DNA from: Bdellovibrionota bacterium
Lineage (GTDB): Bacteria > Bdellovibrionota_C > UBA2361 > OMIW01
DNA length: 64,000 bases
Direction of reading: 5' to 3'
NCBI GenBank assembly: GCA_044235645.1
Contig: JBIIHQ010000003.1
Span: 64,320 to 128,319 of the forward strand
A program made the translations under genes and the position numbers. The notes under the pieces were generated by a model that did not search any database, was not told the origin of the DNA, and was given only the letters and a program-made list of their open reading frames with translations. Shown here one piece after another: positions 6,051 through 25,226 of this stretch (position 1 is the first letter of the stretch; each line of letters begins with the position of its first letter).

Positions 6051-6175
6051 AATTCCCTCCGAAAGAGATATTTGCTGTTATTTTATAACAGCTATTATTC
6101 GCCTCTTCCTCCCGCTAGTCAAGAATTACTGTTAAATTTGACACCAATTTTTTTATTCCATATAATGAGGTAGTT

Positions 6176-7803: not shown

Positions 7804-7966
7804 GGAGAAGGTAGCCCACCCGAACAAGAGTTCATCAGGGAGGACTGTTGTTCTCCTCAGCTCGATCGGCATCGCCACAACGCTCGGAGACGCCTTCTTT
7901 GCCGAGAGCCAGAGGCATCAGTGCAGGTAGCAAGGTGGATGTGGCAATCCCTGTGAGACCGCTGTT

Positions 7967-8704: not shown

Positions 8705-9200
8705 CGTTCATCCCCTTTTTGGAATCGACCCCTTTTCCTGGACTATGGAAACCCCGGTACTCTCGATAGGTAGAGATCCTCAACACTCTCCATACGAGAG
8801 TATGAAGCTTGAAACCCGCGCCACGACTCTCCTTGACCGCTTCCTCGTAAAATTCTAACAGAGAGGACTCCGATATCCCTCCGGGATACCGCTTTAAATC
8901 GGAAGTAGCCATTAATAAACCACGCCTTCATCTCAGATCGTCGCACATGACACGCACATACAGCCCGAGGACAGCGGGAGGCAGGCATTGAGGTTTTTGT
9001 TGATTTCGGTTGTGAGCCCGGACCTCTTTCGCGTAAGGAGATGGCGTTCTTAGGCTCGTTCATTGATGTCTGCAACGGTTCGCGGATATGAATTTTGAGG
9101 GCATCGCCGACACCTTTTTGGAAAAAACGGAGGGAGACCTGGCTCAATTGCTGTCGTATGATTGTGGATGATAAGCCGGCTTCTTCCTCTGTGAGGTGCT

Positions 9201-9734
9201 ATGCGATATGCCCGTTCATTCCTCTTTTGCAGCGTCGTAGCTCTCGCTCTTCTCGGCTGCGGGGTGTCGGTTCAGGATTACAAAAATGAGAAGCCGACGC
9301 TGGTCGTCGAGGACTTTTTCTCGGGAGACCTTGAAGCCTTTGGAGTGGTTGCCGAGCGCAGCGGTAAGGTTATCAAGCGGTTCTCGTGCGACATGAAGGG
9401 AAGCTGGGACGGTCACACGCTTGTGCTTGACGAGGACTTCACTTGGTCGGATGGATCACGACAGACACGGGTGTGGCATTTGACGAGGAAGGCTGATGGC
9501 ACGTTTTCGGGAACGGCTGACGATGTCATCGGCGAAGCGTTCGGAGAAGTTTCAGGCAACACGTTCCACCTTGTCTATGATCTTTCCGCTCCGGTTAACG
9601 GATCAACGACAGTCCTGCATGTTGATGACTGGCTCTACCTTGTCACTGATTCAGTCGTCATGAATCACTCGGAGCTCACGAAGTTTGGGCTGCATGCAGC
9701 GGATGTTTATTTGACGATTCAAAAGAAGGGGTAA
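9201..9734 (+). CDS. DUF3833-family lipoprotein.
   Basis: Lipoprotein signal LALLGCGVS. Downstream VVEDFFSGDLEAFGVVAERSGKVIKRF...WHLTRKADGTFSGTADD matches the DUF3833 lipoprotein family as I recall it. Confidence 0.6.
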   Translation: MRYARSFLFCSVVALALLGCGVSVQDYKNEKPTLVVEDFFSGDLEAFGVVAERSGKVIKRFSCDMKGSWDGHTLVLDEDFTWSDGSRQTRVWHLTRKADGTFSGTADDVIGEAFGEVSGNTFHLVYDLSAPVNGSTTVLHVDDWLYLVTDSVVMNHSELTKFGLHAADVYLTIQKKG

Positions 9735-10101
9735 AGGGGTCATTGAGGCGGAGAAAATAATGCAAGAGCTATCGTCAAATCTCGTGTTTAATTAGCTCAA
9801 CAAGCAGCGACTCGTTGTCTGCACTAACCTCAATACCATATACAAATCTGACTCCGGTAATCACCCTCCGAAGGAGTAAGCACTTATAAACGACGAGGAC
9901 ATCTCCATGCCCCTGAGACAAACGGGGTGGGCCCGAATAGTGGTGATACGGGCTCGTATCGGCGGGGGATGCGATGGAGCTGCCAGGAGTGATAGCGCCT
10001 CCTCTCGGGCGAGTGGTCAGAGACCACATCGCATTCCTCGCGACGGCTTTACTAAATATCGTTCATATTCTACCCTCATAGCATTCCTTAAAGGTTACAT
10101 G

Positions 10102-10839
10102 CCTAACCACAACTGGTCCGACTATTCCCTGCTGTCCCTGCGGGGTGATTTGGCCACCATTAAGCCCTTTTTTTCGCTAGAGGATATCGAAAATCAGGTT
10201 TCCGTCCCGTCGATTCAAGGAGGCCGAGCGGTTCGGTTGAACCCCCTTCCCAGACAGGGGCCAACCGCGATTCGGATTCCCCTGGAAGATTGCAAAACAA
10301 GAATCCCCGAGGGCTTTACCGTCGTCGGTGGGAGGAATGTCAGCGTGATAATCAGGGCGGGTGCGCCACCGATTCTATTTGAAATAGGTGGTTCGGTGGT
10401 GTTTGCCGACAACAGCACCTTCTTCGCCTATGGCTGTTACTACGGTAGTGGCAGCAAGGTGACGAAGGAGATGGCCCCCAGAGTCGTTGAGGGAATACGT
10501 TACTTCGGCAGCAAGCTGGAGAACGTATTTGGCTTTGACGCGACGATATTCCGAGTGATCGAAGCCCAAAAGGTCGGCCGTAAATTGCGGATTCAGGTTC
10601 CAGATGCGGTGATGGAATTCATCGACGATGTCCTCGAAGGCCATACACATGGTCAAAACTTCCCCCGTTACCTGAACGACCCATATTATCGGCGGCGCGG
10701 GGCTGGGTGGGATGATTCGCGGGCTACGAAGCGCTACTGGAAATTCCGCCAGGTAGAGTCCCCCCTCTACAGCTTCATATCCGCCGATCACATCGCATGT
10801 GCGGCGGTTCTCGACGGAGCGACACCGTACGACTCCTAG
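10102..10839 (+). CDS. Hypothetical protein. Start uncertain: the ORF opens at 9907, but the arginine-rich 5' part looks non-coding.
   Basis: Coding-like composition from about MPNHNWSDY onward (AAAGG 5 nt upstream of the 10102 ATG). Preceded by a locally lower-GC pocket (9780-9900). No recognisable domain. Confidence 0.35.
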   Translation, partial: PNHNWSDYSLLSLRGDLATIKPFFSLEDIENQVSVPSIQGGRAVRLNPLPRQGPTAIRIPLEDCKTRIPEGFTVVGGRNVSVIIRAGAPPILFEIGGSVVFADNSTFFAYGCYYGSGSKVTKEMAPRVVEGIRYFGSKLENVFGFDATIFRVIEAQKVGRKLRIQVPDAVMEFIDDVLEGHTHGQNFPRYLNDPYYRRRGAGWDDSRATKRYWKFRQVESPLYSFISADHIACAAVLDGATPYDS

Positions 10840-10869
10840 GGCCTTGTCGGTATAGTCCACGGTTCAATC

Positions 10870-10893
10870 AGAGTGCCCCCCCGCGGGCACTCT
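10870..10893 (+). terminator. Putative intrinsic terminator hairpin (AGAGTGCCC-ccccgc-GGGCACTCT) 30 nt after the stop of the 10839 gene.
   Basis: 9-bp perfect GC-rich stem read from the sequence, followed by TCTACTCTTT, a weak U-tract. Confidence 0.3.
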
Positions 10894-11217
10894 ACTCTTT
10901 CGCAAGCCTGCTGCGAAACGCTACCCCTCCAGCGCCCCTCGATGCGTTACCTCGGCCCTTTACCATGTGGCCTCGCATCTCTCAGGCTCAGGTTCACGGT
11001 GGCAAAGAGGAGGAACCTCCTCGAACACATTCTTTCCAATACCATTCCAATGAAGGCAAGAGGGTGTTCAGACTTCGCTTGCCAAGGCACAGATAGCCCA
11101 GGAGCATACAGGTTTCGGATACTCAATCGCCACCGCAACCCCTTGCTCCCCCACCCCGCCCCATATCACAATCAAGCCACCCTCCCCTAGCCACGATTCC
11201 CAATCACCTGTATCCCA

Positions 11218-14028
11218 ATGACCCCTACCTACCTCCCCTGGCACGATCTCCCCCTCCCGAGCATCGCAGAATACCTCCTCTCCATCGCCCCCTCCGCGAC
11301 TGAACTCGATCTCCGTCATACCGCAATACTTCTCCCCTCGGGCCGCGCGGGACGGCGGCTTATTGAGCTATTGGTAGATCGATGCGCAGAACAGAGGCGG
11401 GTGGTGGTTCCGCCGTTGCTCCTAACTCCCGGAACGGTGGTGGAATCCCTGTATGGTCTCTCCGGCGATACGGGAACCGCTGCACTACCCGATCTGATCG
11501 CAGATAGGCTCTCGTGGTGTCAGGCGGTGACCCGGCTCGATCCCGAGGAGGCTGAGCAGATTGCGCTTGCTTCGGGGAAGGCGGCCCTCTCGTTCTCTCA
11601 GCGATGGGCGCTTGCTGAGACGCTCGGGGCGTTGCATCGCGAGTTACGAGCGGCGGGGGTGTCGTTCGCCTCAATTTGTGAACAGATCGGGAATGGCGAG
11701 AGCGATGACGATGAGTATGCTCGCGCGCAACCATCAACAAGTCTCACTACCATCCCCGAGACGCAGCGTCAGTGGTGGCGGATTGTTCGCAACCTTTTTG
11801 AGCACCGCACCGCTATCCTCGCCGAACATGGCCTCGTTGATCGTGATGTCGCGCGATGGGAAGTGCTTGCGGGAGACGTTGTGCCCCGCGCTCATCGCCT
11901 TATCGTTGCTTGTTGTCCTGATTTGAGCGCTCAGGCACGGCGCGCCATTGAGCTTTTCCCCGGCACCGTTGAGATCCTTATCCACGCTCCCGCTGACACC
12001 GCGGCAGGATTCACCGCGACGGGCACTATTGATGAGTCGTTTTGGCAGTCGTATCCAATACCCATTCCTCCGTCTCAGCTTCACATTGCAGCCGATCCGC
12101 GCCAAGAGGCGCTCGCTGTCGTCGATACGCTCTCTACTATTGCCCCTCACTGCACGGTGCTTGAGTGTGCAATCGCCCCCCTGACGGAGGTAACCCGCCG
12201 GGCGATACGAGCACAGTTCGATCAATCCGCGATCCCTTTTTTCGACGCCGACGCTCCGCCCGCCCCCCTTCTTACCCTTGTATCGTGGCTCCGCGCAGCG
12301 ATCGATTTTGCGCGGACCGGAGGACGTGCTGATGCGTGGCGGCTTCTGCGCCATCCCCATTCACACGGACTTGCTAACCCGGGCACCGCTCTCCATGCGA
12401 TGCTCGATAATATCAATAAAGAGTGCGTGCAGAGCGCCATTCCCCTTCACGGGAGTCCCCGTACGTTTCCCGTCTCTGATGCGCTCGAGCGCGCCCTTGG
12501 TCGTCTCAGCATCCTGCTCGCACCATTTCGGGATAATGATCCACAACCTATCGCAGCGTGGGCTCCGCACATGAGCGCGCTCTTTGATGGATGTCACCTC
12601 GGCGACCAGATCGATGCGGCAACCCACCGTTCACTTGAAGCAACACTCCTGGTTATGCGCGATACGCCACCACTTGCCCCCGTCGTGGGCAGTGAAGCGC
12701 TGACCGTTTTTGCTGATACCTTTTCGCTCCTCCACACACCAGAAACGGAATCGACACCAGCGCTCGATATTATCGGATGGCTTGAGCTTCATCTCGACGA
12801 TTCACCACATCTCTTGATCGCAGGTTTCGTCGAGAACTCGGTTCCCGAGGTGCTCAATAGCGATCCGTTTCTCCCGAACTCGCTTCGCCGCGAGCTCGGG
12901 CTTCCCTCGAATGAATATCGGATGGCGCGGGAGAGCTATCTTCTCTCCGCGCTTCTTGCTAGCCGAAACGCTCACCTCTTCCTCCATCGTCACCTCTCCG
13001 ATGGCTCACAAACATTGCCGAGTCGGTTGTTGTATCGAGACACTCCTGCGCGAAGTATCGCGATCGCTCGCCAATTTTTTATCGAGCCCACCCCTCGGTG
13101 GCGACCGCTCGCCGCAGGCAATCCACTCCCCGCACCAGCATCGTTTATCGCGGCGCATCCACCGACCGCTGGAATTCCTCACGAGCTCTCACTTCCGGTT
13201 ACCGCTCTTCGTGATTACCTCGCGTGCCCGTATCGCTTCTACCTTAAGCGAATCCTCAAACTTCAGCCGACGCCGCCGCCCCTCACCGAGCTCGATTTAC
13301 GGCTTTTTGGAAATCTGCTCCACAATACCCTGCAATCGCTCGGTAATTATGTTGCCGAGCAGTCATCACCCCAGCTCCTTGGGTCAGAGCGCAACTTGCG
13401 CGACTATCTTTTTACAACCCTCGATACCTCATTTGATAATCTCGTTGGTACTCATCCATCACAAGCAGCAAAAATTCAGCTCGAATCAGCGCGGTATCGA
13501 CTACGCGAGTTCGTTGGGTGGCAGGTTGCTTCGTATGCCGAGGGGTGGCATCCAATCGAAACCGAGTTTTCGCTCGATCCCTCGCGCACGACGAGAACGA
13601 TAGGCGAAGCGACGATATCGCTAACCGGGAGGATTGATCGAATCGAGCGGAACATCGAAACCGGTGCCGTCCGGATCCTCGATTTCAAAACAAGCAAGCA
13701 CCCCCCACGGGTGTGGAGCGCGCGCAGCGGGTGGGGTGATCCGCAGCTCCCTTTCTACGCCCTCCTGTTGCACCGGCACCCCCCTTATTCCTCGTCGTGT
13801 GAAGAGATTGGAGCATGTCACGTTGTTCTCAACGGCAGCGGTGAGGTTAAGGCGATTGATGCGGCTCTTCCTCCTGAGCGGTTCGATGCCGTAGAGAGCC
13901 TTCTCACCAAAACCCTCTCTGACATCGCTTCCGGAATCTTTTGGCCACCAGCACCAAGTGTACCATTCGATGACTTCGCGCCAATTATCGGTTCCGCATC
14001 GAGCCGCGCCGCTGGTGATACTTTTTAA
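11218..14028 (+). CDS. addB: AddB-type helicase-nuclease subunit (degenerate helicase N-terminus, C-terminal PD-(D/E)XK nuclease).
   Basis: N-terminal ILLPSGRAGRRLIELL, a degenerate Walker-A region typical of proteobacterial AddB. C-terminal RIDRIE...VRILDFKTSK RecB-family nuclease motif. Sits immediately upstream of a UvrD-type partner, in the addB-addA order seen in alphaproteobacteria. Confidence 0.7.
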   Translation: MTPTYLPWHDLPLPSIAEYLLSIAPSATELDLRHTAILLPSGRAGRRLIELLVDRCAEQRRVVVPPLLLTPGTVVESLYGLSGDTGTAALPDLIADRLSWCQAVTRLDPEEAEQIALASGKAALSFSQRWALAETLGALHRELRAAGVSFASICEQIGNGESDDDEYARAQPSTSLTTIPETQRQWWRIVRNLFEHRTAILAEHGLVDRDVARWEVLAGDVVPRAHRLIVACCPDLSAQARRAIELFPGTVEILIHAPADTAAGFTATGTIDESFWQSYPIPIPPSQLHIAADPRQEALAVVDTLSTIAPHCTVLECAIAPLTEVTRRAIRAQFDQSAIPFFDADAPPAPLLTLVSWLRAAIDFARTGGRADAWRLLRHPHSHGLANPGTALHAMLDNINKECVQSAIPLHGSPRTFPVSDALERALGRLSILLAPFRDNDPQPIAAWAPHMSALFDGCHLGDQIDAATHRSLEATLLVMRDTPPLAPVVGSEALTVFADTFSLLHTPETESTPALDIIGWLELHLDDSPHLLIAGFVENSVPEVLNSDPFLPNSLRRELGLPSNEYRMARESYLLSALLASRNAHLFLHRHLSDGSQTLPSRLLYRDTPARSIAIARQFFIEPTPRWRPLAAGNPLPAPASFIAAHPPTAGIPHELSLPVTALRDYLACPYRFYLKRILKLQPTPPPLTELDLRLFGNLLHNTLQSLGNYVAEQSSPQLLGSERNLRDYLFTTLDTSFDNLVGTHPSQAAKIQLESARYRLREFVGWQVASYAEGWHPIETEFSLDPSRTTRTIGEATISLTGRIDRIERNIETGAVRILDFKTSKHPPRVWSARSGWGDPQLPFYALLLHRHPPYSSSCEEIGACHVVLNGSGEVKAIDAALPPERFDAVESLLTKTLSDIASGIFWPPAPSVPFDDFAPIIGSASSRAAGDTF

Positions 14029-14036
14029 GAGGATCG

Positions 14037-17000
14037 ATGAATACTCCCTCTTCCCTCACTCATGACCTTATTCGCGCGAACGCGGGAACAGGGAAAACAT
14101 TTCAGCTCACGAACCGTTTTCTCTCGCTTATTCTGCGGGGGCATCCACCCGATTCGATCCTTGCGACAACCTTTACCCGCAAGGCGGCGAGTGAAATCCG
14201 CGAGCGCGTGTTTAAGCGGCTTCTCGAGGCCATGAACTCAAGCAAAGCGTGTGTGGAGCTTGGCAGTCATCTCGGTATTCCTGCACTCACTCTGGCTGAT
14301 TGCGAGCGAGCCTTCCTTTCGCTCCTTGCGACCCAGCATCGGCTCCGCATCGGCACGATCGATGCTCTCTTCATGGAGATAGCCCGGCTCTTTTTTATTG
14401 AGACCGGACTGCCGGCACGATGGGAGGTAAGCTCAATCGCCGATGATCACCGTGCGCTCTCCGAGGCAGTTCTTACAACTCTCGAACGGCACCAAGCCGA
14501 CGATGCTATCGGCGAAAAATGTGCCCGAATAATTGGTGAAAGGGCATCCTCAGCGATACTTACCCCGCTGATGCGTCACATTCGACCCGCGCTCGAACTC
14601 GCTCGCTCATCCTCTCCTGAATCATGGTCTACACCACTCTCATTGGCGGAGAATTCGTCGACAAATCTGCCCCTTCACACCTTTGCCTCGGCGCTCGCTG
14701 ATATGCCTCTTCCGATGACCAAGGGTAAGCCGCCTGCACCACATAAGACGTGGCTTAATGCGCGCAACAATCTTCTCACTCAAGTAACAGCGAGCGCTCC
14801 TTACGATATACTCGAACAATCGATTATTAAAAATCTTCTCAGCGGTGGCGATGGATTTGCGCGCCACCCTTTCACCGACGAGCACCGCGCAATTCTTTCA
14901 CCCCTCGCAAACGCAGCGGCCTCTCAGATCCTCGCTGACACCGTCACGCGCACCGCGGAGCTACGCGACCTTATCGACGCGACCCGCGCCACGCTTGATG
15001 CGATAAAATTCCGCACAAACAGCTACTCGTTTGATGACATCAAGCACATCCTTCGGTACGCCGCAGGACGCATCACTGAGCTCGATCTCTTCTTCCGACT
15101 CGATTGTACGATCCGCCACCTCCTCATCGACGAGTTTCAGGATACCTCGCTTGATCAGTGGACGGTATTAGAGCCCCTCGTCTCCGAGGTGCTTTCAGCA
15201 TCTCCTGGAGAACGCACTTTTTTAGTTGTGGGTGATGAAAAGCAATCGATATACGATTGGCGAGGCGGGACACCACACCTCTTTCGCTATCTCGAAGAGC
15301 GCTATTCATCGCTTACGGCCAAGCCGCTCTTCCGTTCGTTTCGCTCCTCCCAAGCGATTATGGCTCTCGTTAACACGATCCTGGATCGCAGCCCCACTTG
15401 CGCGGTAATTGCTTCGCATCCTCGAGTGGCTGAAGAATGGCTCGCTCGAACTAGTCATCACGAAACAACGCTAATGAGTCAGGGATACGTTCAGATTGAG
15501 CGATTCTCCAGGGATAAATCGGACGACACTGAGGATAGCGATCTGAGCGATGATATCACCGATGGGACAGAGGCAGATGCGGTTGATAAAGAGAATACTG
15601 GTATTCGGCGTGCGGTTGAACTGGTCGCCGAAATCCGCGCATCGTACCCGACCGCGACGGTAGGGATTCTGCTTCGTCGCAATAAGTACCAAACGACTAT
15701 CCTGGCTGAGCTGCTTCGTCGTGATATCGCTGCTTCAGGTGAGGGAGGAACTCCGCTCACCTCCTCCCCCGTGGTGCGATCATTGCTTGGCCTTCTAACC
15801 TGGATTGAGCACCCAGCAGATAAGGTAGCTCGTTTTCAGGTCGATCATACTCCTATTCGGGACGCATTTCCCGAATTATCCGGATCAATAGATGAGCGGT
15901 CATGGCTTGCAGAGCAGCGCTCCAGCGTGTGGCGATGGGGAATCGGAACGTATCTCGCGCGAGTGCTTGCCCGGATAGGGTTGGAGACGTCGGACGAGGC
16001 ATCGCTTATCGATCACTTTATCGATGCAGCGTACGAATCTGATGCGACCACTGAGAGCCCCGATATCGATCGCTTTTTGCGTGACATAGAAACCCGATCG
16101 GTATCTCTCGAGAGCCAGGCTTCCGTGCGGGTCATGACGATTCACAAGGCAAAGGGGCTCGAATTTGATGCCGTTATTCTCCTCGATCTCGAGAGCCCTG
16201 CCGTTTCTCGTCGCGGAGTCTCCTTTCTCACCGAGCGCGCTGGGCCTCTTGACCTACCGTCGGCCGTTTGGATCCGCCCTCGCAGCTCGGTGATGAAATA
16301 TCATGAGCGGCTCGTACGCGCGGACGAGGATGAAACAAATCGAGCACTCTCTGGTCAACTTGCGCTTCTCTACGTCGCCGTCACCCGAGCACGGCATGCG
16401 CTCTTTGTTCTTGTCGGGGACAAAATTCCGAAGACGAGCCTCAACGAACTACTCACCGCGACACTCGACCTACCGGGTGGGGATGCGACGATGGATGGGA
16501 GTTCTGATGATGATGTCGCCCCGAAGGAGAACACATCAGAGGGGGCCAATCCCTCCGCAGCGCGTATCGTCTACCACATCGGTGACCGCGCCTGGTATCG
16601 CTTCACTACCGCCCCCCCCTCTCCCACCACCAGCACTCACACCGTGGCTCGGCCGAACTTCCGTCCACCAACCGTTCTCCATCGGCGGGCCCTTCTCGCA
16701 CAAACTCCCTCAACCCGCGCTCTCACCAAGAGCTTCAACTCCGTTCTGAGCGAGGGCAGCGAGGCAGGCAAAAACTTCGGCGCCTTCGTACACGCCCTGT
16801 GCGAACAGATCACCTGGCTCACCGATTCGCCTGAGCTTACCGGCGATCCCACCGCCGTCGCCTACCTGCGCGATCGTCTCACCCGGCCTGCTGTCCGCTC
16901 CGTTTTCGATCCCGCTCACTATCCGGTTCCTCCCGGTGGCACCCGCGACCTGTGGCGCGAGCGCCCCTTCGCCCTCCGTTTGGGGGGCAAGGTCATCTCG

Positions 17001-17261
17001 GGCATCTTCGACCGAGTCGTCGTCATACGCTCCACAACCGGGACCCCGCTGCGAGCCCACCTCATCGACTTCAAAACTGATAGCTGCACTTCCGCTGACT
17101 CCGCAGCCATCGAATACCACACCGCCACCTATCGCCCGCAGATGACCATGTACCGCGCAGCGCTCGCGACTATGCTCGGCATCCAGGAGGATGCCGTCAG
17201 GGGTGAGCTGCTATTTCTTGAGGGTGGCGTTGCGGTTGACCTGTTTGGGAAAGTGAGATAG
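14037..17261 (+). CDS. addA: AddA-type UvrD/Rep-family helicase with C-terminal RecB-like nuclease.
   Basis: Walker A ANAGTGKTF. UvrD motifs (ILATTFTRKAASE, LLIDEFQDTS, VGDEKQSIYDWRG, MTIHKAKGLEFDAV). C-terminal GIFDRVVV...HLIDFKTDS nuclease motif. There is a 9-nt gap after addB. Confidence 0.8.
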   Translation: MNTPSSLTHDLIRANAGTGKTFQLTNRFLSLILRGHPPDSILATTFTRKAASEIRERVFKRLLEAMNSSKACVELGSHLGIPALTLADCERAFLSLLATQHRLRIGTIDALFMEIARLFFIETGLPARWEVSSIADDHRALSEAVLTTLERHQADDAIGEKCARIIGERASSAILTPLMRHIRPALELARSSSPESWSTPLSLAENSSTNLPLHTFASALADMPLPMTKGKPPAPHKTWLNARNNLLTQVTASAPYDILEQSIIKNLLSGGDGFARHPFTDEHRAILSPLANAAASQILADTVTRTAELRDLIDATRATLDAIKFRTNSYSFDDIKHILRYAAGRITELDLFFRLDCTIRHLLIDEFQDTSLDQWTVLEPLVSEVLSASPGERTFLVVGDEKQSIYDWRGGTPHLFRYLEERYSSLTAKPLFRSFRSSQAIMALVNTILDRSPTCAVIASHPRVAEEWLARTSHHETTLMSQGYVQIERFSRDKSDDTEDSDLSDDITDGTEADAVDKENTGIRRAVELVAEIRASYPTATVGILLRRNKYQTTILAELLRRDIAASGEGGTPLTSSPVVRSLLGLLTWIEHPADKVARFQVDHTPIRDAFPELSGSIDERSWLAEQRSSVWRWGIGTYLARVLARIGLETSDEASLIDHFIDAAYESDATTESPDIDRFLRDIETRSVSLESQASVRVMTIHKAKGLEFDAVILLDLESPAVSRRGVSFLTERAGPLDLPSAVWIRPRSSVMKYHERLVRADEDETNRALSGQLALLYVAVTRARHALFVLVGDKIPKTSLNELLTATLDLPGGDATMDGSSDDDVAPKENTSEGANPSAARIVYHIGDRAWYRFTTAPPSPTTSTHTVARPNFRPPTVLHRRALLAQTPSTRALTKSFNSVLSEGSEAGKNFGAFVHALCEQITWLTDSPELTGDPTAVAYLRDRLTRPAVRSVFDPAHYPVPPGGTRDLWRERPFALRLGGKVISGIFDRVVVIRSTTGTPLRAHLIDFKTDSCTSADSAAIEYHTATYRPQMTMYRAALATMLGIQEDAVRGELLFLEGGVAVDLFGKVR

Positions 17262-17473
17262 CTGGCCAACGATATCGCGTAGGCCGCTCGCTCACATAGA
17301 GAAGCACTCCTCCCGGTCGGAGAAATACACGGCGATGAGGGTTGTCCATTTAGGACGTAACGGCCACGGGTATGAAAGTGTGCACAGATTGAGAGAATAC
17401 CTGTTTAGCCGCGGAAGAATCGGGAGGAGGTTTATTGTTCCCCAACCCCGTTCATCTGATACGAAGCAAACCG

Positions 17474-17512
17474 ATTGAGTGGGCCCAAGATACTCAATCA
17501 GGGCCCACTGAG
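17474..17512. repeat. Composite inverted repeat ATTGAGTGGGCCC-N14-GGGCCCACTGAG between convergent addA and the flotillin gene.
   Basis: Read from the sequence. AGTGGGCCC / GGGCCCACT 9-bp arms; the loop itself contains ACTCAAT complementary to ATTGAGT. No flanking T-run, so it is not a classic intrinsic terminator. Confidence 0.3.
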
Positions 17513-17542
17513 GTACTCGACCATGAGGTCAGATGTATTTCT

Positions 17543-19240
17543 CTAGAGGGAAGTTTTATTGCTACTACCCGAGACCTCCACTCCGAGCGCCCTCGTGAGA
17601 TCGTTTAAGCCCGAGCTACCAATGCCTATCTCTCCTAATAGCGAGTCCACCAGGGGTTGCTGCGCCCGATACCGCAGCGCGCTACTGACGACCTGATCAG
17701 CCAGATTACCACCCTGAGTGCTAGGCTGACCGCCAGCCGCCTGGGAGGAAGCGGACCCACCGTCACTCCGAAGACCCTCGACCTGAACGATCTTAATCCC
17801 GTCGATTCTCTCCATAGGACGCACGGATTCGCGAATTATTTCGGGCAGCGCCTTGATAATCTCGAGCTTAACCTGCATCGCAATTTGCTCAATTGAAAGG
17901 GCATTCGCAGCCTCATTCAATGCTCGACGCCCAGCCGCATCAACCGAGTAGCGAACCTCACTTCCCTGCGCCCGCAGCCGCTCGGCGGCCGCATCCCCCT
18001 CGGCAATCATTGTCAGAGCATCTGCCTTGTCCCGAGCAGCCCTTTTTTCGGCATCTGCAGAGACCGTAATTCCGATCGACTCCTTCTCCGCATTCTTGGA
18101 TGCCTCAACAAGCTCAATCTGTTTCTGTCTCTCCGCTCGCTCGGTTTCTCGCACGGTTACTACCTGCTCTTCTGCCTTTACCGCGAGCGCGCGAGCTTTA
18201 TCTGCCATTGCCTGAGCTTCCGATTGGGCCTTTGAACGCTCCGCAACGGCTATCGCTAGATCCTGTCGTGCCAACTCAACCGATTTGGTGCGCTCAACAT
18301 CAGCCTGTTCGACTGCACGGTGTTTCTCGATTTCGCGCTCTTTAACCAGTTGCTCCATCTCCAGTTTTTTGCGATCGACTTCCTGCTGAGCGAGCAGCTG
18401 AGCTTCTCGCGCCTGACGGTCTTGTTCCGCTTTTTGCCTCGCAATATCCGCGCTCTGTTCCGCACGTCGAGTTTCCAGTTCTCGTTGTTGCTCAAGCCGG
18501 GCGTATTCCTCTTCACGCTGGAGCTCTAACTTTATCCTTTCCGCTTCAAGATTCTTCTGACGAATTAAAACCTCGGTATCCTGTTCGATATCGTTGCGCT
18601 GCTTACGTCTGTTTTCAATCTCCTCGGTCAATTTAGTCAGACCCTGGGCATCAAATGCGTTATCGGGATTTAGATACTCTTTGCCGGTTTGGTCGAGAGC
18701 CGTGAGGGATACCGATTCAAGTTCAAGGCCATTCTTTAATAAGTCCTCTGATACAGCCAGCTGGACCTTATTAACAAATTGGGTCCGTTGCTCGTGTAAC
18801 TCTTCCATTGCCATCTCTGCGGCTACCGAGCGAAGCGCATCAACAAATTTTCCCTCAACAAGCGTCCTCAGCTCTTGCGGGTCTAGCGTTTTTAAACCCA
18901 GAGTTTGCGCTGCATCAGCAATCGCCTCCACTATCGGTTTTACTCGAACGTAAAACTCTGCCTCTACATCGACCCTCATTCTATCCCTCGTAATAAGGGC
19001 CTGTTCATTCGCCCGACGAACCTCGAGTCGAAGGGTATTCATGTTGACCGGTATCGTCTCGTGCAGAATCGGAAAAACGAGCGCTCCGCCATTCATGATT
19101 ACCCGCTGTCCGCCGAAGCCGGTCCTTACAAACGACACCTCCTTGGAGGCTCGTCGGTACAGACGACTTACGATCAGTCCTAACGTCAATAGCGCAATGA
19201 ATACCGTTGATGCAGCGAATATGATGTAGTTAATCGCCAT
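17543..19240 (-). CDS. Flotillin-like SPFH/band-7 protein (YqiK/FloT type).
   Basis: N-terminal TM. SPFH domain (VRTGFGGQRVIMNGGALVFPILHE...LRLEVRRANEQALITRD). Long EA-rich coiled coil (QREEEYARLEQQRELETRRAEQ...). 565 aa, a typical flotillin size. Confidence 0.8.
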   Translation of the reverse strand: MAINYIIFAASTVFIALLTLGLIVSRLYRRASKEVSFVRTGFGGQRVIMNGGALVFPILHETIPVNMNTLRLEVRRANEQALITRDRMRVDVEAEFYVRVKPIVEAIADAAQTLGLKTLDPQELRTLVEGKFVDALRSVAAEMAMEELHEQRTQFVNKVQLAVSEDLLKNGLELESVSLTALDQTGKEYLNPDNAFDAQGLTKLTEEIENRRKQRNDIEQDTEVLIRQKNLEAERIKLELQREEEYARLEQQRELETRRAEQSADIARQKAEQDRQAREAQLLAQQEVDRKKLEMEQLVKEREIEKHRAVEQADVERTKSVELARQDLAIAVAERSKAQSEAQAMADKARALAVKAEEQVVTVRETERAERQKQIELVEASKNAEKESIGITVSADAEKRAARDKADALTMIAEGDAAAERLRAQGSEVRYSVDAAGRRALNEAANALSIEQIAMQVKLEIIKALPEIIRESVRPMERIDGIKIVQVEGLRSDGGSASSQAAGGQPSTQGGNLADQVVSSALRYRAQQPLVDSLLGEIGIGSSGLNDLTRALGVEVSGSSNKTSL

Positions 19241-19304
19241 GTATTTCCCCTTTTTCTACCTAGTCTGAGCTGAGAGAACACGAAGCCAAGAGACCTAACC
19301 TCCC

Positions 19305-20000
19305 TTAGTCCGTGTCGTCTTCGATACAAAAAAAACGCGCCCCCACCTTTTTTACCAATATCACTCGACCTCCCGATGGGATGGCAGCCTGACCTTCGTC
19401 GAGCTCAACCAAGACATAGTGATGCTGCCCATATTCATCACGTACCTTCGCTTGCACCGCCGTCCCTACCTGCGCGGTACCCAGAACTATGGTTGCGCTG
19501 CGACCGATAAATGAATCGTCGGTAATCGCTGAAGACTCATCCCCTGGGAGGATCTGTGCTAAACCCTTGCCTGTGAGTCGCGTCAGAGGACCCGCAACGA
19601 CGAGGGCCAATGGAACCGCTAGTAGGGCAGGCGGGTAGGCGCCGATCAGACTTCCGACCAGCAGTTGGATTCCTATTCCGCAGACACCGAACAGGCAGAG
19701 AAAAACAACGAGAACCATCAAAACGGGGACCTTGCCAATCCGTATCCACCCTATTAGCTTGGTAAAGATAGAGCCACCATGACCCGCAGCATCCAAGGCA
19801 GCTGGCGTATCGAGCGCGCCTGCATGGGGTAAACCTGAGGAACCATCTAAGACATCAATATCAGGAATCCAGCTATCAATGATCTGAGAAAGACCAAATC
19901 CACCAACAATTGATAGTCCCTCTATTGCCGCGATGACGATCATCAGAATAAGGGCGGACAGAAATACTATATTTGCATCCGAGGTTAAAAACGCGATCAT
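19305..20000 (-). CDS. NfeD-like membrane protein (partner of SPFH proteins).
   Basis: Multiple TM helices followed by a C-terminal OB-fold-like segment (VGTAVQAKVRDEYGQHHYVLVELDEGQAA). Sits immediately upstream of the flotillin gene on the same strand, the canonical NfeD-flotillin pairing. Confidence 0.65.
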   Translation of the reverse strand: MIAFLTSDANIVFLSALILMIVIAAIEGLSIVGGFGLSQIIDSWIPDIDVLDGSSGLPHAGALDTPAALDAAGHGGSIFTKLIGWIRIGKVPVLMVLVVFLCLFGVCGIGIQLLVGSLIGAYPPALLAVPLALVVAGPLTRLTGKGLAQILPGDESSAITDDSFIGRSATIVLGTAQVGTAVQAKVRDEYGQHHYVLVELDEGQAAIPSGGRVILVKKVGARFFCIEDDTD

Positions 20001-20019
20001 GCTTAGCTAGTCCGTGTCT

Positions 20020-20739
20020 TCAGTCTTGGTCGGAATCATCACTCCTGCTGACACTCGCTTTGTGTGCCGCAAGACGCTCCTGGATCCTGTTTTTTCTGCT
20101 CATACCCTCTAACTCGGCCAGTTTTGATGCGGTATGGACATCGCTACTCAGAACCCCCGATGGCAATCCGGTAGCGCGTTGGATCAGCCTTTCAAAAGCT
20201 GCTTCCGCGTGCTCTACCTTTCTGCGAACCATCTCAAGGTCCCTATTTTTCTCCGAGTCCCTCTCGCCACCGAGCCCTTTTACTCTTTGAGCTCGGTACT
20301 GGACTATCTCCTCGCGCATCTCGCTAATTCGCCCCTGTAAAGCACGTAGATAACCCTCGAGCTCCTTCTCTCGCTCCTCGATATCGACGAGTGATTGCTC
20401 TATGACCGGGATTTGCGCCTCGATATCTAGCTGCACCGCGATCGCCGCCTCGGCGAGGTCGTCGCGTTTTTGGTCTATTGCAATCAACAGTTTTTCCTGC
20501 AGCTCGTCATGTTTCCGATTCGCCTCGAAGAGTCGACGTGTTGCAAGATGTTTCTGGGCAAGCTGCCGTCCGAGCTCATTTCGCACTTCGTCCAGGGCAC
20601 TCTCAATCTCCCGAACCGTCTGCTCTAGAACGGTATCTTGATCAGCACCCTCAATCACCTCAATCAGCCGATTTACCCCTCCGGCCAATACTCGCCTCAC
20701 CCGCGTTTTGATACTCTCTGCCATATCGACCATCCCCAA
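20020..20739 (-). CDS. pspA: PspA/IM30-family (phage-shock protein A / Vipp1-like) coiled-coil protein.
   Basis: 239 aa, all-helical. N-terminal MAESIKTRVRRVL...VREIESALDEVRNELGRQLAQKHLATRRL matches the PspA/IM30 profile. Confidence 0.75.
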   Translation of the reverse strand: MGMVDMAESIKTRVRRVLAGGVNRLIEVIEGADQDTVLEQTVREIESALDEVRNELGRQLAQKHLATRRLFEANRKHDELQEKLLIAIDQKRDDLAEAAIAVQLDIEAQIPVIEQSLVDIEEREKELEGYLRALQGRISEMREEIVQYRAQRVKGLGGERDSEKNRDLEMVRRKVEHAEAAFERLIQRATGLPSGVLSSDVHTASKLAELEGMSRKNRIQERLAAHKASVSRSDDSDQD

Positions 20740-20774
20740 AAAATATTTAAACGGTACCTAGATCCTCGGTGGGG

Positions 20775-21389
20775 CTAGCTGTCAGCGTCGGTCACCAGCA
20801 CTGCGCTGAGGGGGTCGCAAACGGCGCTAGATCTGACGGCATCTATCTGATTGAGAGCCGGCGATTTCCGCGTCTTGGTGGAAACGACAAGCTCTACCAG
20901 CTCCTGAATTACCGAGAGATTCGACGATATAACGGCGGGATCATAACAAGGCTCCTCTCGCGTCACCGCCAATCGCAACGCGCCCTCCATTAAGCCAAAG
21001 ACCTCACCGACCAACTCCTTCTCAAATCGTCGAAGCGCCTCAGATTCGGTGACATCGGCAGGCAAGGTTGTTTTCGCTATAGGTTTTTTCAGAAACAAGG
21101 ACATAAACCCGGGGAGCCAACCACCAATCCTCGCGACAAACTCCGAATGTATCGCGGCGGCGCCCTGAACTGCCCGCACCTCCTGGTAGCGTCGTTCTAT
21201 AATCGACATGATGAAGGCAACTGATTCCTCCGGCTCGGTAGCTGATCGATGCCGCTCTCTTGCCTCACCAATGAGAGCGCGCACCTTTTCACTTGCTGTT
21301 ACCGCTCCCGGCACCGCGAGGCGGGCGAGAAACGCAGCATCTTCGTGACTTATGCGGACACTGAGGGGGACTGTTTTTACCATAATCAC
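20775..21389 (-). CDS. Hypothetical protein with an N-terminal ribbon-helix-helix-like segment. First gene of the PspA-NfeD-flotillin operon and a candidate regulator.
   Basis: N-terminal LSVRISHEDAAFLARLA...SEKVRALIGEA fits a beta-strand / helix / helix RHH pattern. No other recognisable domain. Confidence 0.4.
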   Translation of the reverse strand: MIMVKTVPLSVRISHEDAAFLARLAVPGAVTASEKVRALIGEARERHRSATEPEESVAFIMSIIERRYQEVRAVQGAAAIHSEFVARIGGWLPGFMSLFLKKPIAKTTLPADVTESEALRRFEKELVGEVFGLMEGALRLAVTREEPCYDPAVISSNLSVIQELVELVVSTKTRKSPALNQIDAVRSSAVCDPLSAVLVTDADS

Positions 21390-21425
21390 CTCACTTCATG
21401 AGACGTTTACTTAAGTATACATAAA

Positions 21426-21461
21426 ACATGTATATGTATGCAAATGCATACATATACATGT
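21426..21461. promoter_or_regulatory. 36-bp AT-rich palindrome ACATGTATATGTATGCA-AA-TGCATACATATACATGT in the promoter region of the 4-gene minus-strand operon. Candidate operator.
   Basis: Read directly from the sequence. Perfect 17-bp arms with a 2-bp spacer, 37-72 bp upstream of the 21389 start codon. CGTTTAC direct repeats sit at 21404-21410 and 21464-21470. The element is AT-rich in a ~60% GC genome. Confidence 0.55.
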
Positions 21462-21477
21462 GCCGTTTACAGATACT

Positions 21478-21792
21478 CGGCAGCACTCCCTGCCGACCGC
21501 GCCCCCCGATGTTTCCGTTAGACTTCAACAGAGTGAAACCGGTCTCTCGTCACCGGGCATCTTCTACGAGCTCGGCAACCACAGCTGGTGTCCCTTTACT
21601 TCCGATCGCCCCTCGACCCCGTCCTTTAGAACCGACGGCTGCACCCTACCGATGCAAATGCTAACGAGCGCCAGATCGAGACGTGTCAGCCCAGGATGGC
21701 CCTCTCCCGAGCAGCTCTCGCGACGATCCTTGGCATTCAGGAGGAATACCGTAATGGGTCACCTGCTGTTTCTTGATGATGATTTTGTGGGG
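21478..21792 (+). pseudogene. Frameshifted remnant homologous to the C-terminal ~110 codons of addA (nuclease motif through the C-terminal tail).
   Basis: Frame of ORF 21460..21831 gives LPTAPPDVSVRLQQSETGLSSPGIFYELGNHSWCPFTSDRPSTPSFRTDGCT. This aligns with AddA YPVPPGGTRDLWRERPFALRLGGKVISGIFDRVVVIRSTTGTPLRAHLIDFKTDSCT. After a +1 shift, QIETCQPRMALSRAALATILGIQEE aligns with AIEYHTATYRPQMTMYRAALATMLGIQED, and then GHLLFLDDDFVG aligns with GELLFLEGGVAV. Nucleotide blocks are also shared (gggcatcttc..., ctcgcgac.atcct.ggcat.caggagga). Confidence 0.6.
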
Positions 21793-22136
21793 AACTATTT
21801 CAGAAGGGGTGACGATTGGCGAAAAATATAGCGGAGACCAATCAGGCGCATTCCCGTGCAGTGCCTCACATGGTCCGAATCCCGCCCGATTACCACCTTT
21901 CGCTTCACAATGATTAAGCAACCAGTGCAATGTCACTTCCGACACCCGGTCACCTATAGCTCCTGGGGAGAATTTCTCCAGCCATGCAATCCGTGGTGAT
22001 ACAACGGCGGTTCCAGACCCACATCAAGAGTCCACGACCGCGGCCGACCATGATATGACGCCCAAAATGTCGACCCTTCATGTCAGTTTCAACACGATGC
22101 GTCACAAACACAGGGGGAACATTAAAGGAGACTTAA

Positions 22137-23273
22137 TTACCGGGACAACGCCAAAAAAATTATCAATCCCGCCAAGAGAGCGAAAAGCAGAATTGAGAGC
22201 CAGTACGTTATCTCTTGATTGTTCGTTGCTTTTACGGCCGAGTCAGCCGTTTCAATCGGATGGGAAACCTCATGGTCATCATGTAATTTTTGCTCTATTT
22301 TACTATCGGTGTCGACGCGGTCGAGAAGGTGTCTGCTTCGTGGAGAAGATATGGGGCTCCCGACTAACATCTTTAAAGCATCACAAAACTCGCTCGCAGT
22401 GCGAAATCGAGCATCGACGTTAGTCGCAAGGGCTTTCATTATGATCTCGGAGAGTGCTCTCGACACGGCACTCCTTTTTTCTCGTGGATCAGGGGGGGGA
22501 CGAGACACTTTTGATTCTATCGTCTCGCAAAGATTCAGTCCCCAAAAAGGCGGCTCTCCGACGAGCATTTCATAACCGATAGCCCCCAGAGCATAAACAT
22601 CCCCCTGTCGGACAACTATCCCCTTCTCTAGGTATTCCGGGGACAGATACGAAAGAGTGCCAACAATCGACCCTTTCGTAGTTAGCCGTTGCCCATACCC
22701 ACAATATGCAACGCCAAAATCGGATATCTTGGGCTCCCCTTGTCGGGTCACCAGGATATTCTCTGGTTTCAGGTCTCGATGAATAACTCCTGCTCTGTGA
22801 ATCGCCTCAAGACCTCTCCCGATCCGCATGAGCACTTCTATGCATTTTTGTTCGTCGAAAGGCCCCTGAGAGGCGAGGATTCGGGAAAGATCGCCACCGT
22901 CGACATACTCCATTGAGTATCCGACATGATTGTCAAAACCGATAAACTGAATAGCCCCCACTACATTCGGGTGAGCTACTCTGAAGAGCGCATCGACTTC
23001 ACGATGAAACCTGACGAAGAGAGGATTGCTCTCTCCATCGGCGACAATCGAGGGAAAAAGCATCTTGACCGCGACCAAAGGGGGTGGAGAGAGATCATCT
23101 TCCAGAACTTCCGATACGTACACCACCCCCATCCTGCCAATCTCAAGGCAGCGCATAATCCGGTAGACTCTTCCTACAAGAGTACCCGGCTCTAGAATGT
23201 TGAGATCCTGATTGGTAGAACCATCCCAATTGTTGGGTGAGTCCGAGAGGATCTCGTACAAATCTTTTCCCAC
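22137..23273 (-). CDS. Hanks-type Ser/Thr protein kinase with C-terminal membrane anchor.
   Basis: VAVK ATP-binding lysine, HRDLKPENILV catalytic loop, DFG, SPE motifs. C-terminal TM ITYWLSILLFALLAGLIIFLAL. Confidence 0.8.
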   Translation of the reverse strand: MGKDLYEILSDSPNNWDGSTNQDLNILEPGTLVGRVYRIMRCLEIGRMGVVYVSEVLEDDLSPPPLVAVKMLFPSIVADGESNPLFVRFHREVDALFRVAHPNVVGAIQFIGFDNHVGYSMEYVDGGDLSRILASQGPFDEQKCIEVLMRIGRGLEAIHRAGVIHRDLKPENILVTRQGEPKISDFGVAYCGYGQRLTTKGSIVGTLSYLSPEYLEKGIVVRQGDVYALGAIGYEMLVGEPPFWGLNLCETIESKVSRPPPDPREKRSAVSRALSEIIMKALATNVDARFRTASEFCDALKMLVGSPISSPRSRHLLDRVDTDSKIEQKLHDDHEVSHPIETADSAVKATNNQEITYWLSILLFALLAGLIIFLALSR

Positions 23274-23489
23274 CGATTAGCCCACAAATCATTTGGTTAC
23301 CTCGGTTATCGACTCGATCAGAACCCATCAGGCATATTTTTTGCGCTTTTGCCAAAAAATACGCCTCGCATCATCACTTTGAGCGGCGGGTACAATAAAT
23401 GAGGTGAGATAACAAGAGCTTACTATCAGCCCCAATCGACATTGAATCGTCACGCCCCTGGAACATCGTCTCGCACTATCACCTCTCAC

Positions 23490-25226
23490 TCACCCCTCCG
23501 AGCGTCGTGGGGCCAGATGTAGCATCATTTGCGCAAAAGGTATCGTCCAGCTAAACGCATTACACGCCTCGATAAAGAATTGTCGAACACTTCTCCTTAA
23601 TTTTTCGTAGTGCTCGGCTAATTCTCCCAGACAATCGCAAAAAACTATCAGTTCGAGCGAAGATGATGCCGCCGAGTGAACCTCAACTGACACTTGAACG
23701 AGATCCTCACCGAATCCCAAGTCCCTCAATTTCTCCTGAATAAATTCCCGGAGCTTCGGGACCATCTCGACCAACAGTTGTTTTTGATGTCGGTAATCCA
23801 ATCCAAATATTTCGGCTAAACGAAATCCCCGGGAGAGAACTCGCGGATGAAGGGAGAGAAACGATGCCGTCGGGTAGTTTTTGTAGGCACCTCCCACAAG
23901 GTCCACCCTTACTAATTCCGGGGTCTGCAGAGCTATCTGTCCGAGTACGTCATCGGCCAAAATTACCCAGTCCCCTTCCTTCGTGGGAAAGAGCTTTTCC
24001 CTTGGATTCAGCGGCCGAGATCGGAGAGAAAGCAGGTGGTTGAGAGGAACCCTCACAAACCCGCCCGATAGCCGAGGATTTATCAGCTGGCTGTGGAGAT
24101 TGAGTCGCTGCACAATCCACGGAAGCTGGTCGATTACCACCACCTCTCCTTCCCGAACTGAACCGACGTTCATCAATAGGGATAACTGTGCCCAAAATCG
24201 TGCGAACGCCTCCTTCGACGTCCAGACAATTCCCACGAGGAGCGCAATTGTAAGGATGAGAAGTACCCAATCACCAAAAAAATAAAGTACGACCGCAAAC
24301 ATTAAGAGGGAGCCCATACCGACTCCTCCCATCGCCACGAGATTCAGAAATCGCATCGGCATCGAGGCTTGACGAAGAGCAAAGAACGAAAGCCTCATTG
24401 ACCTCTTCCACACCTCATGAGCCAGAACCCAAAAAAGAACTGCAGCTATCAGTGCAACAAGAAGATTCCTCCCACGACTCCTGAAAAAGAGACCAAATAA
24501 CTCTACCAGAGCCGCCGAGAGTGAGATTTTTTCGGCCTCCTTCTGTTGAAGTCGCTGGCGATTAATCTCGATATCGGTCGAAGTCGCTCTCTTTTGAGCT
24601 TCCCACGAGGCGGTCACTTCATCGATTTCATCGAGGACCTCTTTATCAGAGAGCTGTGCACGAGAGATACCAATGTTTTCAATCGCCTTGTCAATCCGAG
24701 AGAGTCGAAGCTGACCCCTTACGATATCTGAACGAATCCTTTCAATTTCCCGTGGTCGCCGAGTAAGCTCCTTCAGCTCCTTTATGAGCGGTCCGAGGAG
24801 AGCTCGCAATTCTTTATCTAGGTCAAGCTCTTGCTGCTCCGTAGACTCTTCAAGCCCCGAGCGATCCGTTTGAGATACTAATTCCGAAAAAGTCTCCTTC
24901 AGTGTATCTCGCTGCTCTCGAAGGTTCTTCAGTTCTGCTCTGGCCTCCTCCTCCTTGCCCAGAGCCTGGCCACCCCTTAGTTCTTTGGTCTTATCCTTGA
25001 TAGTGATATCGAGCAAAGAAACTGACTCGACCACAGATCGGAGCCTTTCTTGTAGTGGCGGACCTTCCTCCACCTCCTCTTCACCCTTATCAGAGGCCCG
25101 ATCAGGCGACTGCGCATCCGATAATGGAATGAAAAATCCGACAGAGACTATCACCGCTGCCGCGAGCCTGCTCTCCCAACGAAGAGTTGTCCTTAACGCT
25201 CGCAGAACCCCACCACTGTGGTTCAC
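23490..25226 (-). CDS. MscS-family mechanosensitive channel with a long N-terminal coiled-coil (periplasmic) domain. Start re-assigned to GTG at 25226.
   Basis: MscS beta-domain (GDWVILADDVLGQIALQTPELVRVDLVGGAYKNYPTASFL) preceded by TM helices. GTG at 25226 is preceded by a perfect TAAGGAGG SD and yields signal peptide ...RLAAAVIVSVGFFIPLSDA. This also removes the 80-nt overlap with dut. Confidence 0.7.
   Translation of the reverse strand: MNHSGGVLRALRTTLRWESRLAAAVIVSVGFFIPLSDAQSPDRASDKGEEEVEEGPPLQERLRSVVESVSLLDITIKDKTKELRGGQALGKEEEARAELKNLREQRDTLKETFSELVSQTDRSGLEESTEQQELDLDKELRALLGPLIKELKELTRRPREIERIRSDIVRGQLRLSRIDKAIENIGISRAQLSDKEVLDEIDEVTASWEAQKRATSTDIEINRQRLQQKEAEKISLSAALVELFGLFFRSRGRNLLVALIAAVLFWVLAHEVWKRSMRLSFFALRQASMPMRFLNLVAMGGVGMGSLLMFAVVLYFFGDWVLLILTIALLVGIVWTSKEAFARFWAQLSLLMNVGSVREGEVVVIDQLPWIVQRLNLHSQLINPRLSGGFVRVPLNHLLSLRSRPLNPREKLFPTKEGDWVILADDVLGQIALQTPELVRVDLVGGAYKNYPTASFLSLHPRVLSRGFRLAEIFGLDYRHQKQLLVEMVPKLREFIQEKLRDLGFGEDLVQVSVEVHSAASSSLELIVFCDCLGELAEHYEKLRRSVRQFFIEACNAFSWTIPFAQMMLHLAPRRSEG

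Follow-up and report, generated by a model that had tools for sequence, protein, structure and literature searches.

A displaced and decaying addA 3′ end beyond a PspA/flotillin operon is probably a rearrangement scar next to addBA in a Bdellovibrionota bacterium

In a 64,000-nt stretch of DNA from a Bdellovibrionota bacterium (assembly GCA_044235645.1, contig JBIIHQ010000003.1, positions 64,320 to 128,319 of the forward strand; the window hereafter, whose numbering is used throughout) we identified a second, degraded copy of the 3′ end of addA. This remnant occupies positions 21554-21843 (290 nt) on the plus strand, is collinear with 16999-17289 of the intact addA locus, and is very probably a functionless scar of a rearrangement, i.e. 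a displaced addA end in decay. Its assignment as an addA pseudogene fragment is based on blastn, tblastn, a fixed-register test, three- and four-way alignments with a sister species, and codon mapping.

The intact addBA genes lie side by side on the plus strand, addB at 11218-14028 and addA at 14037-17261. Pfam assigns UvrD-helicase, UvrD_C and PDDEXK_1 (PD-(D/E)XK) domains to the latter, which is a continuous open reading frame with UvrD-type helicase domains followed by the PD-(D/E)XK nuclease and thus has the make-up by which we recognise an AddA. A non-coding spacer (17290-17542) comes next and carries, on the minus strand, a terminator-like hairpin (17304-17328) downstream of the flotillin gene. 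The flotillin gene is the last of a four-gene operon on the minus strand (17543-21389), identified by Pfam and by the occurrence of the same unit in a metagenome contig (L013), which encodes flotillin/YqiK (Flot/Band_7; 17543-19240), YqiJ/NfeD (19305-20000), PspA/IM30 (20020-20739) and, from its first gene, a 204-aa protein (20775-21389). The initial annotation had called this unit an RHH-PspA-NfeD-flotillin operon on the minus strand; Pfam confirms PspA, YqiJ/NfeD and flotillin, and the 'RHH' label is at best putative, the 204-aa protein having no family match in Pfam, NCBIfam, PHROGs or the PDB sequences. Judged by eye only, the N-terminus of this protein looks ribbon-helix-helix-like. The palindromic element reported upstream of the operon is indeed there, as a perfect palindrome with 17-nt arms and a 2-nt spacer (21426-21461), and is probably an operator; a structured RNA scan gave only sub-threshold matches to miRNA models, on the palindrome, and found no RNA family. 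The DNA between the two addA ends consequently consists of a complete transcription unit, from terminator to probable operator palindrome, plus a stretch of 92 nt (21462-21553) between palindrome and remnant. On its other side the remnant is followed by a 293-nt spacer ('Z', 21844-22136) that is unique to this species and runs from the remnant tail to the stop codon of a Ser/Thr protein kinase gene (22137-23273, minus strand; Pfam, and synteny with L093 and L094). The kinase gene opens a conserved right flank, which continues with the genes for a 610-aa protein, dUTPase, PNPase and S15.

A duplicated addA 3′ end had been claimed for 21478-21792, corresponding to about 110 codons. The duplication was borne out, and its limits were moved: the first ~75 nt (21478-21553) show no detectable similarity to addA, ~50 nt have to be added at the 3′ side, and the remnant covers addA from codon 989 to codon 1074 (the last 87 codons), together with its stop codon and 28 nt of non-coding tail. 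Its counterpart in the intact locus, i.e. the last ~87 addA codons and the 28 nt past the stop (16999-17289, plus strand), forms a direct repeat with it, the period being 4,555 nt and the remnant being the downstream copy, beyond the operon. A blastn comparison of 16801-17300 with 21301-22000 aligned 17141-17221 with 21695-21776 (82 nt, 79% identity, one 1-nt gap, E 1e-15), and a tblastn search of the whole window with full AddA as query had 21651-21758 as its single hit outside addA (36 aa at 50%, E 2e-4). The three peptide pairs given in the initial annotation were all present. An alignment no better than shuffled controls had been named there as the outcome that would speak against the claim, yet the 3′ part of the remnant gave a local alignment score of 81 compared to 15.5 ± 2.3 for 1000 shuffles. 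For the middle part the score was 25 compared to 16.5 ± 2.4, with 10 of 1000 shuffles reaching 25. The weak 5′ part was tested without any freedom of search, the register being set by collinearity and 63,500 other offsets serving as null distribution: at offset +4555 addA 16999-17090 gave 47 identities in 92 positions, the other offsets giving 23.9 ± 4.4 and none reaching 47. BLAST statistics, shuffles and the fixed-register test together led us to reject chance similarity.

Upstream of the remnant the addA signal stops, as the alignment of 21462-21553 with 16860-16998 scored 15 compared to 15.6 ± 2.3 for shuffled sequences (614 of 1000 shuffles reached 15). The 5′ junction of the remnant is therefore placed at ~21553/21554, possibly 20-60 nt further upstream. 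Comparing the DNA downstream of both addA ends gave no signal either (score 18, shuffles 17.3 ± 2.3), and no meaningful further copies of the addA tail motif or of the palindrome core were found within the window.

We then compared the locus with its relatives in metagenomes. The exact AddA occurs on six metagenome contigs and near-identical variants occur on three more, all of them at most 0.27% divergent from the window. The remnant is present in every one of these population contigs that reaches the region (L002-L005 and L097-L099; L006 and L007 end before it), being 100% identical in L002-L004 and showing no differences over 290 nt in L005 and L097-L099. Thus, the remnant is fixed in the population, and with a population diversity of at most 0.27% the absence of differences over 290 nt is uninformative on constraint. 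A sister species is represented by two contigs for addBA (L008 and L096, 98.9% identical to each other) and three for the kinase block (L093, L094 and L095); L096 and L094 come from one assembly and have similar coverage (17.2x and 19.6x). Its DNA aligns with 11214-17289 of the window at 86.6% nucleotide identity and with 22135-24982 at 86.9%, and nothing aligns between, which makes 17290-22134 (4.85 kb), including the remnant, a lineage-specific island; the terminator-like hairpin lies 15 nt inside its left edge. In the sister a different convergent gene, which has no family match, directly follows addA, and downstream of the kinase gene there is an operon for YfaP/MagC, a 570-aa protein, an alpha-2-macroglobulin (A2M) and a 698-aa protein. 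The flotillin operon is absent from the sister's DNA at both the addA end and the kinase end, and no addA fragment was found at the kinase end or, up to the contig end, at the addA end. With addBA shared up to 17289, the kinase block shared from 22135 and other genes between them, the reading of the locus as a scar of genome rearrangement stands.

More distant relatives add less to this picture. The synteny comparison proposed with the initial annotation was informative for the sister species, which lacks operon and remnant and has another gene after addA, and it ended there: in AddA relatives at 54-56% identity (L009-L012, L100 and L101) addA is followed by unrelated genes, with no synteny, so that the ancestral state is not independently polarised by them. 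Neither in their loci nor in L013 is there a remnant. A scan of genome contigs yielded a single relative (56% identity), which lies on a contig of 3.4 kb.

The operon also occurs elsewhere. In L013 it is likewise a unit, 17553-21453 aligning at 79% nucleotide identity between unrelated flanks, with protein identities of 95% for flotillin, 85% for PspA, 78% for NfeD and 74% for the 204-aa protein. At ~21453, within the palindrome's right arm, this homology breaks off. As judged from these alignments the four genes behave as a portable unit. No integrase, excisionase, transposase or other mobile-element gene was detected in the island or nearby with Pfam, NCBIfam and PHROGs, and the island has no clear compositional anomaly. 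Among the 80 loci returned by a flotillin search none had addA nearby.

The intact addBA genes are 84-92% identical to those of the sister in nearly every 200-nt bin, two bins being at 78-80%, and the profile has no divergence jump or breakpoint at 16999 or at the duplicated segment. For the last 115 codons of addA the dS between window and sister is 0.40, compared to 0.43 gene-wide. A mosaic or foreign 3′ end in intact addA was rejected on these two grounds, and by its divergence the intact addBA behaves as a vertical ortholog of the sister's addBA.

The remnant itself is degraded in several ways. Three 1-nt indels, near 21645, 21745 and 21790, move the register from +4555 to +4554, back to +4555 and again to +4554, in agreement with the at least one frameshift noticed at the outset; the likely original stop codon is the TGA at 21810-21812. 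The motif residues of PD-(D/E)XK nucleases are the Asp of GxxD, the Asp and Lys of hDxK, and the Gln and Tyr of QxxxY. In the frameshift-corrected remnant nuclease residues are replaced while their neighbours are kept, GIFD having become GIFY, IDFKTD PSFRTD and QMTMY RMALS. Only the last ~87 codons, interrupted by three indels and stripped of the nuclease motif residues, are thus left of what makes up a functional AddA, and the tblastn search with full AddA revealed no helicase part elsewhere in the window, including the DNA upstream of the remnant. Between remnant and intact addA dS is 0.94 and dN 0.50, the corresponding values for window and sister addA being 0.43 and 0.069. This pattern is the one expected from one neutral and one constrained branch of equal length, indicating relaxed constraint on the remnant, and the rates would imply that the remnant is, roughly, about twice as old as the window/sister split.

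Several observations bear on where the remnant sequence came from. The homology runs past the stop codon into a non-coding tail of 28-31 nt, showing that the remnant is a copy of the addA locus itself and not of an old paralog; counted from the alignment, 25 of the 31 tail positions agree with the sister species and 19 of the 31 with the window's own addA. When the corrected remnant peptide was compared with 120 AddA homologs it scored 62.5 bits with the sister, 49.9 bits with the window and at most 20 bits with the other 118, which points to an origin within the genus and speaks against both a distant xenolog and an old paralog. A three-way alignment has 74 sites at which the remnant stands apart from an identical window and sister, 13 shared by remnant and window alone and 22 shared by remnant and sister alone. 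These counts place the remnant as an outgroup to both addA copies, which speaks against a recent copy and agrees with the initial view that this is not a recent tandem duplication; a recent duplication of the window's own addA was rejected by the same counts. By dS the remnant looks older than the window/sister split, which would require either a later loss of the island in the sister lineage or a third lineage as the source of the remnant, and the relatives at hand do not allow one of the two addA copies to be called 'native'. When 5.8 billion proteins were searched with a profile built from the remnant and both genus C-termini, the single match was an unrelated RecB-family fragment of 118 aa; as the parent sequences were missed too, this search is uninformative.

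Divergence is distributed unevenly along the remnant. Its 5′ half (21554-21694) is 49-56% identical to genus addA at the nucleotide level and 41-47% identical to distant relatives (those at 56% protein identity), with dN about equal to dS, whereas the 3′ half (21695-21843) reaches 75-77% and 53-55%, respectively. Remnant-specific differences amount to 59 in 144 columns of the 5′ half and 28 in 150 columns of the 3′ half, a gap of about two-fold. A block of 16 codons, MALSRAALATILGIQE, has a dN of 0.14 at a dS of 0.71, and this low dN hints that the addA frame was under purifying selection for a time. Such unevenness is not what simple neutral decay of one duplicate predicts; the remnant may derive from a mosaic allele, or it may be an old fragment that was partly gene-converted around the species split. 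An open reading frame for a 94-aa protein on the opposite strand (21661-21945) was considered as a cause of the uneven divergence and rejected, as the wobble positions that vary in the sense frame correspond to codon position 2 of this frame and it is called inconsistently.

The course of events that we infer starts from an addA gene of this genus whose stop codon was at 21810-21812 and which was convergent with the kinase gene. Recombination would have put a segment of ~4.55 kb upstream of this old end, bringing a full addA 3′ end as replacement together with a self-contained transcription unit in the order terminator, flotillin, NfeD, PspA, 204-aa gene and operator palindrome, followed by the 92 nt. 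A one-sided homologous recombination anchored in addBA, combined with illegitimate joining on the opposite side, i.e. homology-facilitated illegitimate recombination (HFIR), would produce this arrangement if the donor was a close relative having the operon next to addA. The addA gene would have been kept intact through the upstream copy, and the downstream copy, having no promoter, start codon or helicase body, would have been left to drift. Among the possible routes we prefer this HFIR-type one, tentatively and with less than even confidence. The joint between the 92 nt and the remnant at ~21553/21554 fits the HFIR arrangement, with no donor sequence or microhomology identified there; among the 80 flotillin loci returned, an addA directly followed by the operon was found in no other lineage, so that HFIR stands as a model. 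One of two scenarios offered initially, insertion of the flotillin cassette into an ancestral addA 3′ end with later decay of the duplicated segment, is incomplete in its simple form, given the outgroup position of the remnant and the two-fold difference between its halves.

Other routes to the same layout have to be weighed against the HFIR-type one. A local tandem duplication of ~16999-21553 with its joint by the palindrome, after which the second copy was mostly deleted and its first 290 nt were left, needs no foreign donor. The 4,555-nt period speaks for it, as does the distance of only ~90 nt between the joint and the perfect palindrome of 36 nt, palindromes being known as fragile sites, and the dN and dS values are compatible with decay of one duplicate next to an original under constraint. 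We nevertheless consider it rather unlikely: two events are required, the second of which must end exactly 28 nt past the stop, at the point where the homology of window and sister stops too; the lack of any greater closeness of the remnant to the window's addA than to the sister's (13 versus 22 sites) is left unexplained; so is the two-fold divergence gap between the halves; and the operon would have adjoined addA before the species split, yet the sister has no operon there. Alternatively, a site-specific element of the e14/phage-21 type could have entered the addA 3′ end with a replacement end of its own and lost its integrase since. Its layout would be that of icd ... e14 ... icdC, where a diverged direct repeat of a gene 3′ end brackets the insert, and the repeat at addA stops shortly beyond the stop codon, an element of this kind having no need to carry more. 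Moreover, an 11-nt perfect identity, CGGGCATCTTC (at 16999 and 21554), marks the 5′ edge of the repeat, and a breakpoint 28 nt past the stop in three contexts would be expected if islands used one att-bearing module. However, the conserved GIF(D) nuclease motif is encoded by CGGGCATCTTC, and some weak similarity may reach ~20 nt further upstream, making this identity poor evidence for an att core. Neither the 4.85-kb island nor its surroundings contain an integrase, excisionase or transposase, the intact 3′ end has no divergence jump from the sister at 16999, and the remnant, which would be the 'native' end, is not the sister's closest match, so that an element of this type appears unlikely.

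The second of the initial scenarios, wholesale replacement of a native addBA by a xenologous addBA with the remnant as the old native end, was not supported. It would account for the remnant being an outgroup to the intact copies of window and sister, for a 5′ half that is hardly closer to the genus (49-56%) than to distant relatives (41-47%), and for the conserved block MALSRAALATILGIQE with its locally low dN/dS. The addBA genes are, however, as close to the sister (86.6%; 84-92% per bin) as is the kinase block (86.9%), with no breakpoint at the duplicated segment, the 3′ half of the remnant and its non-coding tail are at genus level (75-77% nucleotide identity; 62.5 and 49.9 bits versus at most 20), and a dN of ~0.5 together with three indels needs a long neutral decay whatever the source, rendering such a replacement quite improbable. 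We finally asked if the stretch might be functional now, as a small protein or as a regulatory or 3′-UTR element of the kinase or flotillin units. An open frame of 123 aa (21460-21831) spans the remnant, gene callers predict the antisense 94-aa frame in some assemblies, the DNA from the kinase stop codon to the palindrome holds no terminator-like site, and every population contig that reaches the remnant carries it without differences over 290 nt. The latter carries no information at a diversity of at most 0.27%, though, and no family or homolog exists outside the population: the 123-aa frame has no Pfam match and the 94-aa frame none in Pfam, NCBIfam or PHROGs. The antisense frame is left uncalled in L005 and L097-L099 despite the lack of differences in the compared part (21661-21843), the sites variable between remnant and addA, i.e. 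sense wobble positions, fall on its codon position 2, and the whole stretch is missing from the sister species. A present function is accordingly judged very improbable.

The 3′ limit of the homology recurs in different surroundings. The conserved addA module ends 28 nt past the stop codon, at ~GGCCGxTC, in the comparisons of intact addA with remnant, of window with sister and of remnant with sister, and it is followed by the flotillin operon at intact addA, by the different convergent gene at the sister's addA, and by the spacer and the kinase gene at the remnant. A single illegitimate event leaves this three-context breakpoint unexplained. It is conceivable, if doubtful, that the addA end up to 28 nt past the stop is a recurrent recombination module at which cargo is exchanged without a dedicated recombinase. 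If so, the mosaic divergence of the remnant would record at least two separate recombination events, and the locus would be a natural example of island swapping anchored on the 3′ end of a housekeeping gene. The shared breakpoint and the two-tier divergence of the remnant are two modest puzzles at this locus.

Comparable arrangements are known. At the cryptic prophage e14 of Escherichia coli K-12 a displaced 3′ end of icd, icdC, is left downstream (PMC13626634). This is the closest analogy to the addA locus, which has no integrase: as with e14 (and phage 21), an intact housekeeping gene is followed by an insert and by a diverged, promoterless C-terminal copy that ends just past the stop (PMC13626634). 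e14, however, is a prophage of 15 kb that encodes an integrase and excises precisely, whereas here a four-gene cellular operon without a recombinase is involved; the addA copies are far more diverged than icd and icdC (about 50-79% nucleotide identity), the remnant has three frameshifts, and, in contrast to icd/icdC, the native copy is not assignable. Displaced 3′ ends of effector genes have been attributed to HFIR (PMC5361080). Like the orphan 3′ ends of T6SS effector, Rhs and CDI genes, the addA remnant fits a process in which incoming DNA, anchored through homology to the conserved upstream portion of a gene, brings a new 3′ end and cargo, so that the old end is shifted downstream and survives there as a fragment (PMC5361080). 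Those genes encode polymorphic toxins whose new 3′ end differs in function and whose orphan is reusable, whereas both ends at addA are versions of one nuclease-domain tail, that of a DNA-repair gene, and the cargo has no relation to addA; also, a single displacement is seen here instead of an array.

Compared to ordinary bacterial gene remnants nothing essential differs. The addA remnant is truncated and frameshifted, has lost catalytic residues, sits at the edge of a lineage-specific island and is missing from the sampled relatives that cover the region; unusual are the uneven halves and the shared breakpoint 28 nt past the addA stop. It is thus a fresh instance of a well-known type of feature, which opens no new mechanism and has no bearing on AddAB function. 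On the history proposed here, the locus is a further natural example of a housekeeping gene that stays intact through a replacement 3′ end while its old end decays, following the icd/icdC pattern, and the remnant would date and orient the arrival of the PspA/flotillin membrane-stress operon between addA and the kinase gene. For annotation, the 290 nt should be recorded as an addA pseudogene fragment, and the 94-aa hypothetical protein called on the opposite strand is probably spurious.

The homology of the intact addA gene (window 14037-17261) to its decayed 3′-end copy, the remnant, and to the sister species ends 28 nt past the addA stop codon, the same limit being reached in three independent comparisons. 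The breakpoint lies at 17289/17290 and 21843/21844 in the window, and at 6104/6105 and 5833/5834 in the sister-species addBA contigs L096 and L008, respectively. Its recurrence suggests either that recombination favours this point or that a shared event lies behind it. The sister-species counterpart of the DNA left of window position 22135 was located on two kinase-block contigs (L094, 11374-21125; L093, 3090-12841), where the Ser/Thr kinase gene is followed by genes for a YfaP_C/MagC protein, a 570-aa protein, a 1684-aa alpha-2-macroglobulin and a 698-aa protein. The flotillin island is absent from these regions. The stretch between addA and the kinase gene therefore seems to vary, with envelope-related cargo that differs from species to species.

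The remnant is overlapped by an antisense ORF of 94 aa (21661-21945, minus strand), labelled as hypothetical protein in several public assemblies. This ORF has no family match, its 90%-identity cluster contains only two members and there is no sign of homologs beyond this population. It is uncalled in the same-population contigs L005 and L097-L099, although the part of the ORF that was compared there (21661-21843) shows no differences. Most likely the gene prediction is spurious and merely overlies the addA pseudogene. We also searched 5.8 billion proteins by a word-indexed method with a profile built from the remnant and both genus AddA C-termini, and obtained a single, unrelated match of 118 aa. 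The search missed even P0001 and P0002, the AddA proteins that had supplied two of the three query rows, which looks like a sensitivity gap of this search tool for short profile queries. Upstream of addA, the longest addB ORF (11218-14028, plus strand) opens with an ATG at 11218 and encodes 936 aa, exceeding by about 60-70 codons the 863-875-aa products predicted for addB in public assemblies from this population; which start codon is the true one is uncertain.

The four-gene membrane-stress operon is kept as a unit in the metagenome contig L013 (Ga0114972_10000044), where positions 7715-11701 match window 17553-21453 with 79% nucleotide identity overall, in a completely different neighbourhood. 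Amino acid identity is strikingly uneven, being 95% for flotillin, 85% for PspA, 78% for NfeD and 74% for the 204-aa protein. The shared operon may reflect its horizontal transfer, or a related lineage may have had its genome shuffled. Upstream of the 204-aa/PspA/NfeD/flotillin genes lies a perfect 36-nt palindrome (21426-21461; ACATGTATATGTATGCA AA TGCATACATATACATGT), a probable operator for the RHH-like first gene. Its core, GTATGCAAATGCATAC, is partly conserved at the L013 copy (around 13880-13915, reverse complement), and its outer left arm varies among strains L097-L099 (G21430C and deletion of T21431). On the minus strand the palindrome also scores as a terminator-like hairpin.
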